Source: a virus
Virus genome (UHGV): UHGV-0230427
Strand: one strand, 5' to 3'
DNA length: 24,355 nt
The position numbers and the translations under genes were made by a program. Position 1 is the first letter of the stretch. Every line of letters begins with the position of its first letter. The notes beneath the pieces were generated by a model. The model was not told the DNA's origin. It made no database searches and was given only the letters and a program-made list of their open reading frames with translations. Of the stretch, positions 4,084-14,316 are shown piece after piece.

Positions 4084-4781
4084 AAAACATCGCCGCACAG
4101 ATGGTTAACTTTGACCGTGAGCAGATGCGTCGGATCGCCAACAACATGCCGGAACAGTACGACGAAAAGCCGCAGGTACAACAGGTAGCGCAGATCATCA
4201 ACGGTGTGTTCAGCCAGTTACTGGCAACTTTCCCGGCGAGCCTGGCTAACCGTGACCAGAACGAACTGAACGAAATCCGCCGCCAGTGGGTTCTGGCTTT
4301 CCGGGAAAACGGGATCACCACAATGGAACAGGTTAACGCAGGAATGCGCGTAGCCCGTCGGCAGAATCGACCATTTCTGCCATCACCCGGGCAGTTTGTT
4401 GCATGGTGCCGGGAAGAAGCATCCGTTATCGCCGGACTGCCAAACGTCAGCGAGCTGGTTGATATGGTTTACGAGTATTGCCGGAAGCGAGGCCTGTATC
4501 CGGATGCGGAGTCTTATCCGTGGAAATCAAACGCGCACTACTGGCTGGTTACCAACCTGTATCAGAACATGCGGGCCAATGCGCTTACTGATGCGGAATT
4601 ACGCCGTAAGGCCGCAGATGAGCTTGTCCATATGACTGCGAGAATTAACCGTGGTGAGTCGATCCCTGAACCAGTAAAACAACTTCCTGTCATGGGCGGT
4701 AGACCTCTAAATCGTGCACAGGCTCTGGCGAAGATCGCAGAACTCAAAGCTAAGTTCGGACTGAAAGGAGCAAGTGTATGA
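4080..4781 (+). CDS. P: Replication protein P (DnaB helicase loader)
   Basis: 233-aa protein matching recalled lambda P; start overlaps the O stop (ATGA coupling). Confidence 0.95.
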   Translation: MKNIAAQMVNFDREQMRRIANNMPEQYDEKPQVQQVAQIINGVFSQLLATFPASLANRDQNELNEIRRQWVLAFRENGITTMEQVNAGMRVARRQNRPFLPSPGQFVAWCREEASVIAGLPNVSELVDMVYEYCRKRGLYPDAESYPWKSNAHYWLVTNLYQNMRANALTDAELRRKAADELVHMTARINRGESIPEPVKQLPVMGGRPLNRAQALAKIAELKAKFGLKGASV

Positions 4782-5068
4782 CGGGCAAAGAGGCAATTAT
4801 TCATTACCTGGGGACGCATAATAGCTTCTGTGCGCCGGACGTTGCCGCGCTAACAGGCGCAACAGTAACCAGCATAAATCAGGCCGCGGCTAAAATGGCA
4901 CGGGCAGGTCTTCTGGTTATCGAAGGTAAGGTCTGGCGAACGGTGTATTACCGGTTTGCTACCAAGGAAGAACGGGAAGGAAAGATGAGCACGAACCTAA
5001 TTTTTAAGGAGTGTCGCCAGAGTGCCGCGATGAAACGGGTATTGGCGGTATATGGAGTTAAAAGATGA
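4778..5068 (+). CDS. ren: Ren protein
   Basis: 96-aa ORF overlapping the P stop; sequence (MTGKEAIIHYLGTHNSFCAPDVAALTGATVTSINQAAAKMARAGL...) matches recalled lambda Ren. Confidence 0.85.
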   Translation: MTGKEAIIHYLGTHNSFCAPDVAALTGATVTSINQAAAKMARAGLLVIEGKVWRTVYYRFATKEEREGKMSTNLIFKECRQSAAMKRVLAVYGVKR

Positions 5069-9748: not shown

Positions 9749-10072
9749 ATGAAGATGCCAGAAAAAAATGACCTGTTAGCCGCCATTCTCGCGGCAAAGG
9801 AACAAGGCATCGGGGCAATCCTTGCGTTTGCAATGGCGTACCTTCGCGGCAGATATAATGGCGGTGCGTTTACAAAAACAGTAATCGACGCAACGATGTG
9901 CGCCATTATCGCCTGGTTCATTCGTGACCTTCTCGACTTCGCCGGACTAAGTAGCAATCTCGCTTATATAACGAGCGTGTTCATCGGCTACATCGGTACT
10001 GACTCGATTGGTTCGCTTATCAAACGCTTCGCTGCTAAAAAAGCCGGAGTAGAAGATGGTGGAAATCAATAA
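9749..10072 (+). CDS. S: Holin S (dual-start S107/S105 type)
   Basis: 107-aa protein matching recalled lambda S, including the Met1-Lys2-Met3 dual-start motif and transmembrane segments. Confidence 0.95.
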
Positions 10073-10532
10073 TCAACGTAAGGCGTTCCTCGATATGCTG
10101 GCGTGGTCAGAGGGAACTGATAACGGACGGCAGAAAACCAGAAATCATGGTTATGACGTCATTGTAGGCGGAGAGCTATTTACTGATTACTCCGATCACC
10201 CTCGCAAACTTGTCACGCTAAACCCCAAACTCAAATCAACAGCCGCCGGACGTTACCAACTTCTTTCCCGTTGGTGGGATGCCTATCGTAAGCAGCTTGG
10301 CCTGAAAGACTTCTCTCCGAAAAGCCAGGACGCTGTGGCACTGCAACAGATTAAAGAGCGTGGCGCTTTACCGATGATTGATCGCGGTGATATCCGTCAG
10401 GCTATCGACCGTTGCAGCAATATCTGGGCTTCACTGCCGGGGGCTGGTTACGGTCAGTTCGAGCATAAGGTTGACAGCCTGATTGCAAAATTCAAAGAAG
10501 CTGGCGGAACGGTCAGAGAGATTGAGGTATGA
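10056..10532 (+). CDS. R: Endolysin R (lytic transglycosylase)
   Basis: 158-aa protein matching recalled lambda R ([51 protein letters not shown]...). Confidence 0.95.
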
Positions 10533-10966
10533 GCAGAGTCACCGCGATTATCTCCGCTCTGGTTATCTGCATCATCGTCTGTCTGTCATGGGCTGTTAAT
10601 CATTACCGTGATAACGCCATCGCCTACAAAGACCAGCGCGATAAAGCCACGTACATCATCGCTGACATGCAGAAGCGTCAACGTGATGTAGCAGAACTCG
10701 ACGCCAGATATACAAAGGAGCTTGCTGATGCTAACGCGACTATCGAAAGTCTCCGTGATGATGTTTCTGCTGGGCGTAAGCGGCTGCAAGTCGCCGCCAC
10801 CTGTACAAAATCAACGACCGGAGCCAGCAGCATGGGCGATGGAGAAAGCCCAAGACTTACAGCAGATGCTGAACTCAATTATTACCGTCTCCGAAGTGGA
10901 ATCGACAGGATAACCGCGCAGGTTAACTACCTGCAGGAATACATCAGGACGCAATGCCTGAAATGA
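10529..10966 (+). CDS. Rz: Spanin inner-membrane subunit Rz (i-spanin)
   Basis: 145-aa ORF overlapping the R stop; N-terminal TM segment plus coiled-coil; N-terminal ~40 aa match recalled lambda Rz, the remainder is diverged. Confidence 0.9.
10722..10913 (+). CDS. Rz1: Spanin outer-membrane lipoprotein subunit Rz1 (o-spanin), embedded in Rz in the +1 frame
   Basis: 63-aa ORF wholly inside Rz; signal peptide with lipobox (LLGVSGC) and Pro-rich mature part, as in lambda Rz1. Confidence 0.75.
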
Positions 10967-11002
10967 TCGGGCGATGAAAACCAAAAAAAACAGGAGCAAT
11001 AC

Positions 11003-11278
11003 ATGACTAAGCTTTATCACCGCATCTCAACTTTTCTCTCTGGTTGCTGGGCGTTTATCACGTCTATTTCGTTCGCCATCTTTAGTTTCGGTAGCACAAC
11101 GTGCTCGCTTAGTCGGGGTCTGTGGCGTGCTATTTCAGCACTAGCGCCGAAATTTTTACCTGAAAAGGCTGTTTGGCGAATTGTAGAGCGAATGTGTAGT
11201 GAGAGCGTTCGCGAGAAGATTAACGTATTTGGACGTCATCCTCGAAATACAGGCGCATTGTGCAGTCCGTTACTGTAG
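11003..11278 (+). CDS. Hypothetical small hydrophobic protein
   Basis: 91-aa ORF with AGGAG RBS (10992-10996) 6 nt before the ATG; hydrophobic N-terminal half; no homolog recognised. Confidence 0.45.
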   Translation: MTKLYHRISTFLSGCWAFITSISFAIFSFGSTTCSLSRGLWRAISALAPKFLPEKAVWRIVERMCSESVREKINVFGRHPRNTGALCSPLL

Positions 11279-11572
11279 TCATTACAAAGCCCATCTACGG
11301 GTGGGCTTGATAATGAAACCAGAATTTATTCTGGGAAACCAGTTACGGCAGTACAGCGAAACAACCCAAGCCAGAAAGTGGGGAAATAACACTGGCAGCC
11401 ACTGAAAGATGAACCTCCTGCCTTATGGCAAAAAAGATTCTTTGTGGTGGCGGACTGATGGAAAGACATCGGTTATTGCAGAGGCCATTCAATGAGTGGT
11501 CTCGACAATGGCTTATACCCTACACGGGATAACTTAACTGATATCCCTTTTAACGGATAAACGGAGCCAACA

Positions 11573-11815
11573 ATGGCAGAGATTATTCCCATGACTGAAG
11601 AACAGAAATTCCAGTTAGAGATTTACAAGCTGGTCATGAACCAGAACGCAGCCGCAGAAGAAGCATTTCAATTCATCGGCACTGACGAACTGAAGCTTGA
11701 GTTATTCAAAATTCACTTCCAGTCAGGCGGCGCTAATTCAGATATCACGATCCGCACATTCGAAGCAGTGCGTAAATCGAAGGAAGCGTTAGACCTGTTC
11801 ACCGCTGGAGTGTGA
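11573..11815 (+). CDS. Hypothetical protein (first gene of a small-ORF cassette upstream of terminase)
   Basis: 80-aa ORF with ACGGAG RBS; stop 1 nt before the next ORF's ATG; no homolog recognised. Confidence 0.6.
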   Translation: MAEIIPMTEEQKFQLEIYKLVMNQNAAAEEAFQFIGTDELKLELFKIHFQSGGANSDITIRTFEAVRKSKEALDLFTAGV

Positions 11816-11816
11816 T

Positions 11817-12206
11817 ATGGCTAAGGCCAAATGGCACAAACTCCCGGCGTTCACCATTCCGCTGTTTCAAAGTGCACACGTCTACCTCGCAACAACCAGA
11901 GAACAGTTTCAGCACGCTGATAAATTCCTTGGCGGCAGCGGGGATGAGAAGCCATTCAATCTTGGGCTTGCAAGCAACTATGAAAACACTGATACGGGTG
12001 AGCGATGCTATCTGATTGGAGTATTCGATCAGCAGATCGCTACGCTCGTTCATGAGTGCGCCCACGTCTGCTTTTACGTTTGCTCTGATGTCGGCGTGAC
12101 GACAAGCCCTGAAGATGCCAACGAGACGTACTGTTACATGCTGGACAGGATGGTTAATCACTTCCTGCCATTCATTCAGGAGAAACAAGATGTATCACTG
12201 GAATAA
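11817..12206 (+). CDS. Hypothetical protein with HExxH zinc-metallopeptidase-like motif (SprT/ImmA-like signature)
   Basis: 129-aa ORF with GGAG RBS; motif ATLVHECAHVCF contains a canonical HExxH embedded in a hydrophobic helix-like context; several further Cys/His/Asp/Glu residues downstream. Family not identified. Confidence 0.65.
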   Translation: MAKAKWHKLPAFTIPLFQSAHVYLATTREQFQHADKFLGGSGDEKPFNLGLASNYENTDTGERCYLIGVFDQQIATLVHECAHVCFYVCSDVGVTTSPEDANETYCYMLDRMVNHFLPFIQEKQDVSLE

Positions 12207-12384
12207 TCAATCCCCTTATTGCCAATGCCAACGCTGCCCGTGCTGCGGGAAGATTGTTAACCAATTTACTGGCAACAATTTCTTCAAGACTGGTTATGGA
12301 TATGGTGTTGCGGGTAGCATTAATTGCTCTGGGGCTGCTGCTGAAACGACATCAAACACAGGCAAGCAGGAAGGAGCTAAGTAA
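12190..12384 (+). CDS. Hypothetical small Cys-rich protein (possible zinc ribbon)
   Basis: 64-aa ORF with AGGAG RBS (12178-12182) 7 nt before the ATG at 12190; CQCQRCPCCGK cluster; overlaps the end of the upstream ORF by 17 nt. The ORF track's longer version (12115) lacks an RBS. Confidence 0.5.
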   Translation: MYHWNNQSPYCQCQRCPCCGKIVNQFTGNNFFKTGYGYGVAGSINCSGAAAETTSNTGKQEGAK

Positions 12385-12473
12385 TGGTAATCAAAGTTTG
12401 TTCAGGCTCTCAGGGCTTCGACAACCCATCCAAATTCCGCGATGAATGGGATAAGCAAGCAGAAGGGAAATAA
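12384..12473 (+). CDS. Possible 29-aa micro-ORF
   Basis: Hand-translated MVIKVCSGSQGFDNPSKFRDEWDKQAEGK; strong AGGAAGGAG RBS (12368-12376) 7 nt upstream; start overlaps the upstream stop (TAATG); ends 5 nt before the small terminase ATG. Too short for the ORF track. Confidence 0.3.
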   Translation: MVIKVCSGSQGFDNPSKFRDEWDKQAEGK

Positions 12474-12478
12474 TCAAT

Positions 12479-12904
12479 ATGGCGACTGAGAAAAAGAAAG
12501 GTGGTCGCCCCTCTGATTATATGCCGGAGGTGGCTAATGACATTTGCGCATTGCTTTCCTCCGGTGAGAGTCTGCGCAAAGTTTGCGAACGCCCAGGAAT
12601 GCCGAGCAAAACATCAGTTTTTCGCTGGCTGGCTGAACATCAGGAGTTTCGTGACCAGTACGCGAAGGCAACAGAGACTCGGGCCGACTCTATTTTCGAA
12701 GAGATATTCGAAATTGCTGACGACGTAATCCCTGATGCCGCCGAGGTGGCAAAGGCAAGACTTCGCGTTGATACCCGCAAATGGGCGCTGGCCAGAATGA
12801 ATCCCCGTAAGTATGGCGACAAGGTAACTAATGAGCTTGTCGGCAAAGACGGAGGCGCAATTCAGATTGAAACATCACCGATGAGCACTCTATTCGGAAA
12901 ATGA
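12479..12904 (+). CDS. Terminase small subunit (Sf6 gp1-like)
   Basis: 141-aa ORF immediately upstream of and overlapping the large terminase; N-terminal HTH-like region; resembles recalled Sf6-type TerS. Confidence 0.8.
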   Translation: MATEKKKGGRPSDYMPEVANDICALLSSGESLRKVCERPGMPSKTSVFRWLAEHQEFRDQYAKATETRADSIFEEIFEIADDVIPDAAEVAKARLRVDTRKWALARMNPRKYGDKVTNELVGKDGGAIQIETSPMSTLFGK

Positions 12905-14316
12905 CCTCGATTAATCCTATCTTTGAACCGTTCATTGAGGCGCATCGCTACAAAGTCGCCAAAGGCGGTCGAGGTAGCGGTAAGTCATGGGCAATTGCTA
13001 GGCTGCTTGTTGAAGCGGCGCGTCGGCAGCCTGTGCGTATTCTCTGCGCTCGTGAACTGCAAAACAGTATCAGCGATTCGGTAATCCGGTTGCTTGAAGA
13101 TACCATCGAGCGGGAAGGGTATTCGGCTGAGTTTGAAATTCAGCGTTCCATGATTCGTCATCTCGGAACGAATGCTGAGTTCATGTTCTACGGCATCAAA
13201 AACAACCCGACGAAGATTAAATCGCTCGAAGGCATTGATATCTGCTGGGTGGAAGAAGCGGAAGCGGTAACGAAGGAATCATGGGATATCCTGATACCAA
13301 CCATCCGCAAGCCGTTCTCTGAAATATGGGTGAGCTTTAACCCGAAGAACATACTCGACGATACCTATCAGCGATTCGTTGTAAATCCTCCCGATGATAT
13401 TTGTCTGCTGACGGTGAACTACACCGACAACCCGCACTTTCCTGAAGTTCTCCGTCTGGAGATGGAAGAGTGTAAACGCAGAAACCCGACACTGTATCGT
13501 CACATCTGGCTTGGTGAGCCAGTGAGCGCAAGTGATATGGCAATCATCAAACGTGAATGGCTTGAAGCTGCAACCGATGCGCACAAGAAACTCGGATGGA
13601 AAGCGAAAGGCGCGGTTGTTTCTGCACATGACCCGTCAGATACAGGGCCAGATGCTAAAGGTTACGCATCGCGTCACGGTTCGGTGGTTAAGCGCATTGC
13701 CGAAGGTCTGCTGATGGACATCAACGATGGTGCTGACTGGGCTACTTCGCTGGCAATTGAAGACGGCGCTGACCATTACCTGTGGGATGGTGATGGTGTT
13801 GGTGCCGGGCTACGCAGACAGACAACGGAAGCGTTCTCCGGCAAGAAAATCACCGCCACGATGTTCAAGGGCAGCGAATCGCCATTCGATGAAGATGCAC
13901 CGTATCAGGCCGGAGCATGGGCTGATGAAGTCGTACAGGGCGACAACGTTCGCACTATTGGCGATGTATTCCGCAATAAGCGAGCGCAATTCTATTACGC
14001 GCTGGCTGACAGGCTTTATCTGACATATCGGGCGGTTGTCCACGGTGAGTATGCAGACCCCGACGACATGCTGAGTTTCGACAAAGAAGCGATAGGCGAG
14101 AAGATGCTGGAGAAGCTGTTTGCAGAACTGACGCAGATTCAGCGCAAATTCAATAACAACGGGAAGCTGGAGCTTATGACTAAGGTCGAAATGAAGCAGA
14201 AGCTCGGTATTCCATCTCCTAACCTGGCTGATGCGCTGATGATGTGTATGCATTGCCCGGAGTCGGCTGCGCAACCCGACTATTCCAGTTACTCAATTCC
14301 TTGTGGTGTAGGTTGA
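12901..14316 (+). CDS. Terminase large subunit
   Basis: 471-aa ORF; Walker A-like motif (VAKGGRGSGKSWA) near the N-terminus, acidic nuclease-domain residues C-terminally; ATGA overlap with TerS. Confidence 0.95.
   Translation: MTSINPIFEPFIEAHRYKVAKGGRGSGKSWAIARLLVEAARRQPVRILCARELQNSISDSVIRLLEDTIEREGYSAEFEIQRSMIRHLGTNAEFMFYGIKNNPTKIKSLEGIDICWVEEAEAVTKESWDILIPTIRKPFSEIWVSFNPKNILDDTYQRFVVNPPDDICLLTVNYTDNPHFPEVLRLEMEECKRRNPTLYRHIWLGEPVSASDMAIIKREWLEAATDAHKKLGWKAKGAVVSAHDPSDTGPDAKGYASRHGSVVKRIAEGLLMDINDGADWATSLAIEDGADHYLWDGDGVGAGLRRQTTEAFSGKKITATMFKGSESPFDEDAPYQAGAWADEVVQGDNVRTIGDVFRNKRAQFYYALADRLYLTYRAVVHGEYADPDDMLSFDKEAIGEKMLEKLFAELTQIQRKFNNNGKLELMTKVEMKQKLGIPSPNLADALMMCMHCPESAAQPDYSSYSIPCGVG

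Follow-up and report, generated by a model that had tools for sequence, protein, structure and literature searches.

What do the four small open reading frames (ORFs) packed against the small terminase gene of the viral genome UHGV-0230427 encode, and do they form a unit? They lie head to tail on the + strand of the window, by which we mean the whole 24,355-nucleotide (nt) stretch of DNA analysed, and the original prediction had taken them for a translationally coupled four-gene module that includes a minimal zinc metallopeptidase, placed between the lysis genes and the terminase. Our analysis indicates that the cassette is a mosaic, in which an insertion of about 600 nt carrying ORF2 and ORF3 has entered a backbone of DUF2560 gene, micro-ORF and terminase, and not a dedicated machine. 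Judged by its conservation and its modelled fold, ORF2 is a candidate zincin-like metallopeptidase of the gluzincin type, and the phage family it belongs to is uncurated. The host element is a P22-like (HK620/CUS-3/Sf6-type) Escherichia coli prophage, and the locus is the known variable junction between lysis and terminase genes.

The ORFs encode 80, 129, 64 and 29 amino acids (aa), and we reproduced their coordinates, Shine–Dalgarno sites and tight junctions. ORF1 (11573-11815; PF10834, phrog_571) is a DUF2560 protein homologous to P22 Orf80 and HK620 HkbM, ORF2 (11817-12206) is the peptidase candidate and belongs to PHROG 1365, ORF3 (12190-12384) is rich in cysteine, and ORF4 (12384-12473) is a member of a micro-ORF family. 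The TGA of ORF1 (11813-11815) is separated by 1 nt from the ATG of ORF2 at 11817; the 5′ end of ORF3 overlaps the 3′ end of ORF2 by 17 nt; the ORF3 stop and the ORF4 start meet in TAATG (12382-12386); and the TAA of ORF4 (12471-12473) precedes the small-terminase ATG at 12479 by a 5-nt gap. Shine–Dalgarno sites lie 6-7 nt 5′ of each of the four ATG codons: GGAG at 11563-11566 (ORF1, 6 nt) and 11807-11810 (ORF2), AGGAG at 12178-12182 (ORF3) and AAGGAG at 12371-12376 (ORF4). All four are most likely real genes, because the family matches of ORF1 and ORF2 (E 2.6e-42 and 2.9e-37) and the frame-specific conservation of ORF3 and ORF4 put them beyond chance.

Conservation carries much of the case for ORF2. 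Residues 1-125 of the protein align to positions 3-121 of the 127-position phrog_1365 profile (E 2.9e-37). Its identity is 61% to ST64T Orf-129, to phage L Orf129 and to epsilon34 gp70, about 43% to genes of mEp phages and 35% to the hkcC region of HK620 and P22. A HECAH motif had been pointed out in ORF2, and we find this at codons 79-83 (12051-12065). We aligned 40 closer relatives (alignment A2) and 49 relatives with identity down to 25% (alignment A3). H79, E80, H83, D91, N102, E103, Y105 and Y107 are invariant in A2; in A3 the invariant positions are G50, H79, E80, H83 and E103, with P15 and Y107 nearly so, and the invariance of N102 is limited to A2. The HExxH signature is thus conserved in both sets. 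E103, in an N-E pair at codons 102-103 (12120-12125), lies 20 residues past H83, the second His of HExxH, and is the candidate third zinc ligand. Thermolysin has the same 20-residue His-to-Glu spacing (H146 to E166), with an Asn before the Glu. Because H, E, H and E are kept across a very diverged family, zincin-type (gluzincin) catalysis is favoured, with H79 and H83 as predicted zinc ligands and E80 as predicted catalytic base.

The predicted structure is consistent with this idea. A confident AlphaFold2 model built on a 40-sequence alignment (predicted local distance difference test score, pLDDT, 85.1; predicted template modelling score, pTM, 0.80) contains strands 11-13 and 20-25, helix 28-37, strands 50-56 and 63-69, and helices 74-91 (with HExxH) and 103-127 (with E103). 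The zincin metallopeptidase (MPTase) core has been described as a three-stranded sheet, an N-terminal helix, the HExxH helix and a next helix that bears a zinc-binding Glu (PMC5512222). The order of elements in the model fits this core: an N-terminal sub-domain of sheet, backing helix and edge strand comes before the active-site helix, H79, E80 and H83 lie within predicted helix 74-91, and the candidate ligand E103 stands at the start of predicted helix 103-127. Searching predicted viral structures (BFVD) returned 31 matches at E≤1e-3, all of them small phage proteins, and the few that carry automated names are labelled SprT-like, PolyVal metallopeptidase (E 1.8e-4), Metalloprotease or IrrE. 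Comparison with solved structures supports the zincin reading weakly. Foldseek found no match to the model in the Protein Data Bank (PDB) at E≤0.001, and PDB sequences matched the A2 and A3 profiles below threshold only, the matches being either to zinc peptidases, namely myroilysin, peptidyl-Lys metalloendopeptidase and BMP1, or to N4-type virion RNA polymerase (vRNAP) in its HExxH region; the hmmsearch matches to N4-type vRNAP chains (E 0.9-1.4, non-significant) span a strand and the HExxH helix. Taken together, the metallopeptidase reading is supported by motif conservation and the predicted fold, not by strong similarity to a solved structure, and we infer that ORF2 binds metal and is proteolytic.

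The family to which ORF2 belongs has a PHROG number only, without a Pfam model or a solved structure, and no Pfam family covers the 49 diverse relatives. SprT-like and ImmA/IrrE-like peptidases had been suggested as its kin. As a SprT-like protein (PF10263), ORF2 scores 12.5 bits against a cut-off of 25.6, over the HExxH helix alone (residues 73-90), and a weak match appears in only one of the 49 relatives (E 0.009); one relative (P0029) bears the automated label ‘SprT-like family protein’. SprT-like proteins have a third His ligand shortly after HExxH. No conserved His follows H83 in A2 or A3, in which the invariant residue there is E103. ImmA/IrrE (Peptidase_M78, PF06114) gave no match at E≤1, and no repressor gene neighbours ORF2 in 80 loci. 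PhageMetallopep (PF18894) was rejected as well, with no Pfam match and an hhalign probability of 1.5% for A3 against the 212-aa PF18894 proteins found as neighbours, confined to the HExxH helix, and so was the best NCBIfam match, the aKG-HExxH peptide beta-hydroxylase family (TIGR04267), at 17.4 bits against a cut-off of 40 (E 0.0035, residues 75-104 only). The original prediction of a zinc metallopeptidase therefore stands in outline, with HExxH and E103 invariant to 25% identity, a zincin-like order of elements at a pLDDT of 85 and the BFVD neighbours on its side, whereas membership of the SprT-like or ImmA/IrrE families fails. Likewise, the check it proposed for a zincin fold with a third ligand yields a zincin-like element order in which the candidate for that ligand is Glu and not His.

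Relatives of ORF2 are numerous. A word-indexed search found 206, and an exhaustive profile search recovered 838 representatives of 50%-identity clusters at E≤1e-3, nearly all of them stand-alone proteins of 100-140 aa; ORF2 and nearly all of the 150 relatives listed are single-domain proteins of 100-190 aa. Because diverged members occur across several phage types, among them N4-like and Flavobacterium phages, the family represents a widely shared accessory function. One such member is gp75 of Shigella phage Moonfish (L231 3914-4240), which reads HELNH...SEAYCYY. It is conserved in Gamaleyavirus and Klebsiella KP8-like phages, and about 50 N4-like genomes, of phages of E. coli, Klebsiella and Pectobacterium, have this type of member, which lies in a small-gene block divergent from the terminase and, in many but not all of the records listed, about 0.5-1.4 kb from the deposited genome end. 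Domain fusions sought among the longer relatives came down to N-terminal mis-starts and a basic C-terminal tail. The relatives with this tail (P0116, P0132, P0134 and mEp554_72 at L093 3501-4058) are 173-185 aa long and end in an acidic coil followed by the basic sequence KKGKRKPKAKEAxVPRVMSFKRG, which could be a nucleic-acid-binding or targeting tail. A link to the anti-restriction genes of plasmid leading regions was not borne out: a plasmid collection gave 8 matches only, none of them listed beside conjugation or anti-restriction genes, although flanking genes were not examined.

Do the four genes travel together? We compared 80 IMG/VR loci selected solely for an ORF2 homologue with 81 selected solely for the micro-ORF. 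At the ORF2-selected loci, a DUF2560 gene adjoins in 53 of 80 (in either order), ORF3 in 15 and ORF4 in 15; at the micro-ORF-selected loci, DUF2560 is nearby in 57 of 81 and ORF2 or ORF3 in only 4. These counts speak against the four-gene co-occurrence that had been proposed. The insertion itself is visible in alignment A1, in which E. coli RM8426 and CFSAN064035 have ‘ACATGGCAA’ after the DUF2560 stop and then shared sequence from window position 12409, which delimits an inserted segment at 11800-12408 (+ strand, ends approximate) comprising ORF2, ORF3 and a new N terminus for ORF4. Genome counts agree. Among 5,426 complete E. coli genomes, about 910 match part of the cassette, mostly ORF1, and only 16 carry the whole 906-nt cassette, which is found before either Sf6-type or P22-type terminase genes. 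Part of 12200-12485 (ORF3 and ORF4) is matched by 217 E. coli genomes, of which 18 cover at least 80%; most of the others listed match only the last 75-77 nt, from window position 12409. Elsewhere the slot after DUF2560 holds orf59c (P22), hkbN (HK620) or Orf-129 with Orf-134 (ST64T). ORF2 is not at this position in P22, in HK620 or in most prophages with identical packaging genes, and its paralogue HkcC sits in the immI moron of P22. It is on the alignment to a common backbone and the co-occurrence counts that we call the cassette a mosaic and not one module.

All 80 loci place the ORF2 homologue between Rz and the small terminase gene, 0-2 genes 5′ of the latter, and the small terminases concerned belong to at least six unrelated families. 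In other phages a second HExxH protein, the 212-217-aa ‘putative phage metallopeptidase’ PF18894 (HELYH or HEMYH), lies directly 5′ of the small terminase gene. In nine loci (L019, L025, L026 and L036-L041, at about 4376-5014) it directly follows an ORF2 homologue, so that two unrelated HExxH proteins adjoin. PF18894 proteins directly 5′ of the small terminase gene are also found at L089 8122-8775 and L090 7177-7830.

ORF1 is the resident backbone gene of the locus. It matches DUF2560 (PF10834) at E 2.6e-42, with 143.3 bits against a cut-off of 25 and residues 5-76 on profile positions 1-72 of 72, and phrog_571 at E 1.8e-40. It shares 75 of 80 residues with P22 Orf80, its HK620 counterpart is HkbM, and the Prokaryotic Genome Annotation Pipeline (PGAP) annotates it in E. 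coli prophages. Read as saying that none of the four proteins resembles a canonical P22 protein, the earlier statement is contradicted by this identity to a canonical, though uncharacterised, one and by the membership of ORF2 in the family of ST64T Orf-129 and of HkcC from P22 and HK620.

ORF3 has no match in Pfam, PHROG or NCBIfam, and tblastn against isolated phages found none. The longest ORF in its frame starts at 12115; homologues fix the start at the ATG at 12190. Frame and length are kept in homologues at L017 and L048 (89% identity, that of L017 with a GTG start) and in P0125 (63%), and a homologue at L046 with 38-47% identity retains the frame and the motif C-x-C-Q-R-C-P-C-C-G-K. Differences between the window and L017 and L048 cluster at third positions of the ORF3 frame, with 8 synonymous to 7 non-synonymous codon changes there, compared with 1-3 to 10-12 in the other two frames. 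An alternative 63-aa frame (12254-12445) was rejected; it diverges faster (65-78% identity as against 89% for the ORF3 frame), and the codon counts favour ORF3. The clustering of five cysteines points to a putative small zinc-binding knuckle. The exact protein occurs on 98 public contigs as a hypothetical protein. When ORF3-like genes were sought in IMG/VR without reference to ORF2, 15 of 16 lay on ORF2-bearing contigs, within one gene of the ORF2 homologue. The remaining one, at L109 1835-2059, encodes a 74-aa Cys-rich protein with the YCQCQRCPCCGK motif of ORF3 and extra CxxC pairs; it stands in an unrelated phage context with no ORF2 homologue near it. Two further sequences are decayed or rearranged copies of the insertion: E. 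coli A10 (L005 2457-2785) retains only the 3′ end of ORF2, an ORF3 frameshifted by a 1-nt deletion, and ORF4, beside a remnant of Rz, and the public 89-aa protein P0123 is an in-frame fusion of ORF3 and ORF4.

ORF4 is probably a real micro-gene, and its family extends far beyond the cassette (window 12409-12478; L003 1994-2065; L004; L058 4390-4464; L112-L230). In the common arrangement, DUF2560 is directly followed by a 23-aa ORF, MATQGFDNPSKFRDEWDKQAEGK, in the frame of ORF4. A degenerate DNA pattern scan found the core QGFDNPSKFR[D/E]EWDKQ on at least 120 IMG/VR viral contigs. These encode at least 28 different peptides, 23-30 aa long, with N termini such as MAT-, MVIKVCSGS-, MKTNQCSE-, MQNNQCT- and MKQPKAS-; in every variant the ATG is in frame and a stop comes 4-6 codons past the core. 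What lies downstream varies: a small terminase gene of P22 type or Sf6 type, a gene of one of two other families, or a hairpin. The 29-aa sequence of ORF4 itself occurs unchanged on 445 public contigs, and the 70 nt that immediately precede the terminase ATG are 97-100% identical across about 200 E. coli genomes. Within the core, 13 of 15 variable sites are third codon positions, a count biased by a search pattern that allowed synonymous change only. As a candidate DUF2740 protein (PF10872), ORF4 was rejected at 12.7-13.7 bits against a cut-off of 27, over 14 residues only.

Given these data, we lean slightly towards a reading in which the locus is an accessory, ‘moron’-type mosaic stretch whose four ORFs are most likely real, and in which ORF2 is a minimal stand-alone peptidase of the gluzincin type acting on a foreign or host protein. 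The four genes would form part of a Q-dependent late transcript and be translated by coupling; transcription with the late operon is proposed because we found no + strand promoter and no convincing terminator between the genes. In ORF2, a zinc ion would be bound by three side chains, two from the HExxH helix (H79 and H83) and one from the helix after it (E103); E80 would activate water, and strand 63-69, just before the HExxH helix, would dock the substrate peptide. The resulting zinc-dependent endopeptidase would cleave, late in infection, a protein of the host or of a competing mobile element, possibly with ORF3 as a partner, and would be dispensable for virion assembly. Because P22, HK620 and most prophages whose packaging genes are identical do not carry ORF2, we take it to be accessory and not morphogenetic; this, together with the presence at the same junction of the P22 moron pid, which acts on a host operon, is why cleavage of a host or competitor protein is proposed. 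Late expression and a non-morphogenetic role are what we infer from these absences and from the operon layout.

Several results weigh against this reading. Among curated protease families in Pfam and NCBIfam, none reaches its cut-off for ORF2. Genomic context implicates no substrate, partner or defence system for ORF2. PGAP leaves ORF3 and ORF4 uncalled in RefSeq E. coli genomes. The promoter scan was of a crude consensus type, so that the genes may also be expressed in the lysogen.

The alternatives differ in what they make of the neighbours of ORF2 and of its chemistry. ORF2 and ORF3 might be a functional pair, a co-mobile two-gene module in which ORF3 is the substrate, an inhibitor or a zinc-dependent partner of ORF2, for example as a processed peptide or a latency factor. 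The near-exclusive company of ORF3-like genes (15 of 16 with an ORF2 homologue no more than one gene away, spread over at least four diverged lineages: the close cassette, L017, L048 and L046) speaks for this, as does the embedding of the ORF3 ribosome-binding site and start within a conserved ORF2 3′ end, even at L048, where the rest of ORF2 is 63% identical; the sub-threshold match to the peptide-modifying family TIGR04267 is compatible with action on a small peptide. However, ORF3 is missing at 65 of the 80 ORF2 loci, L109 has its ORF3-like gene without a nearby ORF2, DUF2560 separates the two genes in L046, and the 15 co-occurrences are for the most part one cassette in near-identical copies, so we consider the pair unlikely. 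We are a little more sceptical still that the 272 nt after ORF2 (12207-12478) are mostly non-coding, with ORF3, ORF4 or both as chance ORFs in a leader or recombination ‘boundary’ behind a two-gene cassette. PGAP annotates nothing there, the terminal 70 nt stay nearly identical in some 200 genomes with differing flanks, as expected of a recombination linker, strain A10 has a 1-nt deletion in ORF3, and the evidence for constraint on ORF4 comes in part from a pattern permitting synonymous change only. These points are outweighed by the excess of synonymous changes in the ORF3 frame (8 as against 1-3), the Cys motif retained at 38-47% identity, the ORF4 ATG and nearby stop kept in at least 28 variants with unrelated N termini and in five downstream contexts, and the strong ribosome-binding sites and coupled junctions of both ORFs, in a region where Rfam finds no RNA family.

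The chemistry of ORF2 could also be other than proteolytic, a different metal-dependent reaction such as that of a hydroxylase or another hydrolase, or the protein could be a catalytically silent binder. That all curated peptidase families stay below threshold, that the best NCBIfam match is a peptide hydroxylase and that Foldseek returns no solved zincin would suit such a protein; we nevertheless think it improbable, given that the exact gluzincin set of H, E, H and E is strictly invariant over a very diverged family, that the predicted order of elements fits zincins and that the recurring neighbours among solved structures and sequences are zinc peptidases only. Highly improbable, in our judgement, is a role for ORF2 in packaging DNA or initiating head assembly, such as processing or regulating terminase, in place of cleaving foreign proteins. 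Its constant place 0-2 genes 5′ of many small-terminase types (80 of 80 loci), the unrelated HExxH protein PF18894 that fills the same slot in other phages and the Flavobacterium phage homologue that also lies 5′ of packaging genes would accord with it. Yet ORF2 is lacking here in P22, in HK620 and in most E. coli prophages that have the same terminases, the whole cassette is present in only 16 of 5,426 E. coli genomes, a paralogue resides in the immI moron far from the terminase, and the N4-like homologue lies in a block divergent from the terminase; a recombination-permissive module junction explains the position better.

The preferred reading, that of an accessory stand-alone peptidase, can be set beside known systems. 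The closest counterparts, ST64T Orf-129, phage L Orf129 and epsilon34 gp70, are 61% identical to ORF2 over nearly their full length and share its HExxH...E residues, as do the HkcC paralogues at 35%, and Orf-129 and gp70 lie, like ORF2, after Rz and before the small terminase gene, in most cases with a DUF2560 gene as 5′ neighbour; they differ in that the gene after Orf-129 in the Salmonella phages is Orf-134 and not ORF3 and ORF4. HkcC differs in belonging to the immI region, beside sieA and mnt; in the published description of the epsilon34 genome, hkcC is a gene of immunity region I with no function assigned (PMC2629481). Relatives in PHROG 1365 are annotated without a function, so that this comparison gives ORF2 a name and no mechanism. 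MPTase domains are also found in phage and plasmid polyvalent proteins, for example the C-terminal region of N4 vRNAP and ArdC (Iyer et al. 2017, PMC5512222), and the HExxH region of N4-type vRNAP was assigned to the zincin MPTases in the same study (PMC5512222). ORF2 resembles these PolyVal MPTases in being phage-borne and in the description of its core, and it matches residues 2186-2234 of N4 vRNAP below threshold (E about 1). Their domains are set in very large, often injected multidomain proteins, which they are thought to auto-process (PMC5512222), whereas ORF2 is a free-standing, single-domain protein of 129 aa. SprT-like and ImmA/IrrE proteins are, like ORF2, small HExxH proteins common in phages, but ImmA/IrrE has an adjacent helix-turn-helix repressor gene as its substrate, whereas ORF2 loci show lysis, DUF2560, terminase and other small genes. 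P22 pid, a moron between orf25 and orf80 that acts on a host operon (PMC8835761), and other junction morons (Rha, KilA-N, Gp49, DUF551) share with the cassette the variable, dispensable niche between Rz and the small terminase. In contrast to the cassette, whose genes run with the late operon and show no promoter of their own, pid lies on the opposite strand under its own regulation. A PADLOC-DB scan of ORF1-ORF4 gave no match at E≤1, and in the literature on DUF2560, hkcC, orf80 and phage HExxH anti-defence proteases we found no paper that examines the function of any of the four.

The surroundings are those of a P22-like prophage. Nucleotide matches of the window include HK620, CUS-3, Kapi1 and numerous P22-like phages of E. 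coli and Salmonella, and its order runs from immunity, replication, nin and Q regions through lysis, small terminase, large terminase and portal to head genes. The lysis genes are holin (9749-10072), lysozyme (10056-10532) and Rz (10529-10966). The accessory zone ends at the Sf6-type small terminase gene (12479-12904, + strand; PF20901 E 1.1e-44, phrog_1482 E 7.2e-67), the 3′ neighbour of ORF4, followed by the large terminase (12901-14316). The location originally described is therefore accurate on the terminase side, which is directly 3′; on the other side the lysis genes are not immediate neighbours, since a 91-aa ORF (11003-11278; phrog_34701 E 1.4e-56) and about 300 nt intervene. The 91-aa ORF lies just 3′ of Rz and has a hydrophobic N-terminal half, and its counterpart in phage HK140, HK140_069, is annotated as hypothetical. 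Window 11345-11560 is 93% identical to the rha-orf25 flank of P22; within it, 11492-11560 is a homologue of P22 orf25 (22 aa), 12 nt 5′ of ORF1, and the pid moron of about 630 nt that P22 has between orf25 and orf80 is absent from the window. Scans of 10900-13000 found no RNA family in Rfam at E≤1 and no + strand promoter-like site by consensus, and between Rz and the terminase no convincing terminator was seen, the single weak hairpin being inside the 91-aa ORF. An antisense 129-aa ORF (11799-12188, - strand), a near-mirror of ORF2, is open in 33 of 83 loci, close relatives only, and is most likely a by-product of ORF2 codon composition.

In conclusion, the locus is an ordinary mosaic accessory (moron) region whose four proteins are already deposited as hypothetical proteins. 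A far-reaching proposal, which we would rate as a long shot, is that ORF2 is the founding member of a widespread class of free-standing mini-gluzincins (the 838 clusters, in P22-like, lambdoid, N4-like, Flavobacterium and other phages) used as counter-defence or host-takeover proteases and paired here with the Cys-rich, zinc-binding ORF3, and that, separately, ORF4 is a functional micropeptide of 23-30 aa by which hundreds of enterobacterial prophages control or couple the expression of their terminase. For phage annotation, RefSeq omits two conserved small genes, the 64-aa Cys-rich ORF3 and the pre-terminase micro-ORF of 23-30 aa, and the analysis yields as a by-product a large, uncurated and easily testable mini-zincin family. 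If ORF2 is truly an active protease, it would open a large, uncharacterised phage protein family to study through one small gene that is genetically tractable, and the identity of its substrate could expose a proteolytic route of host manipulation or counter-defence.

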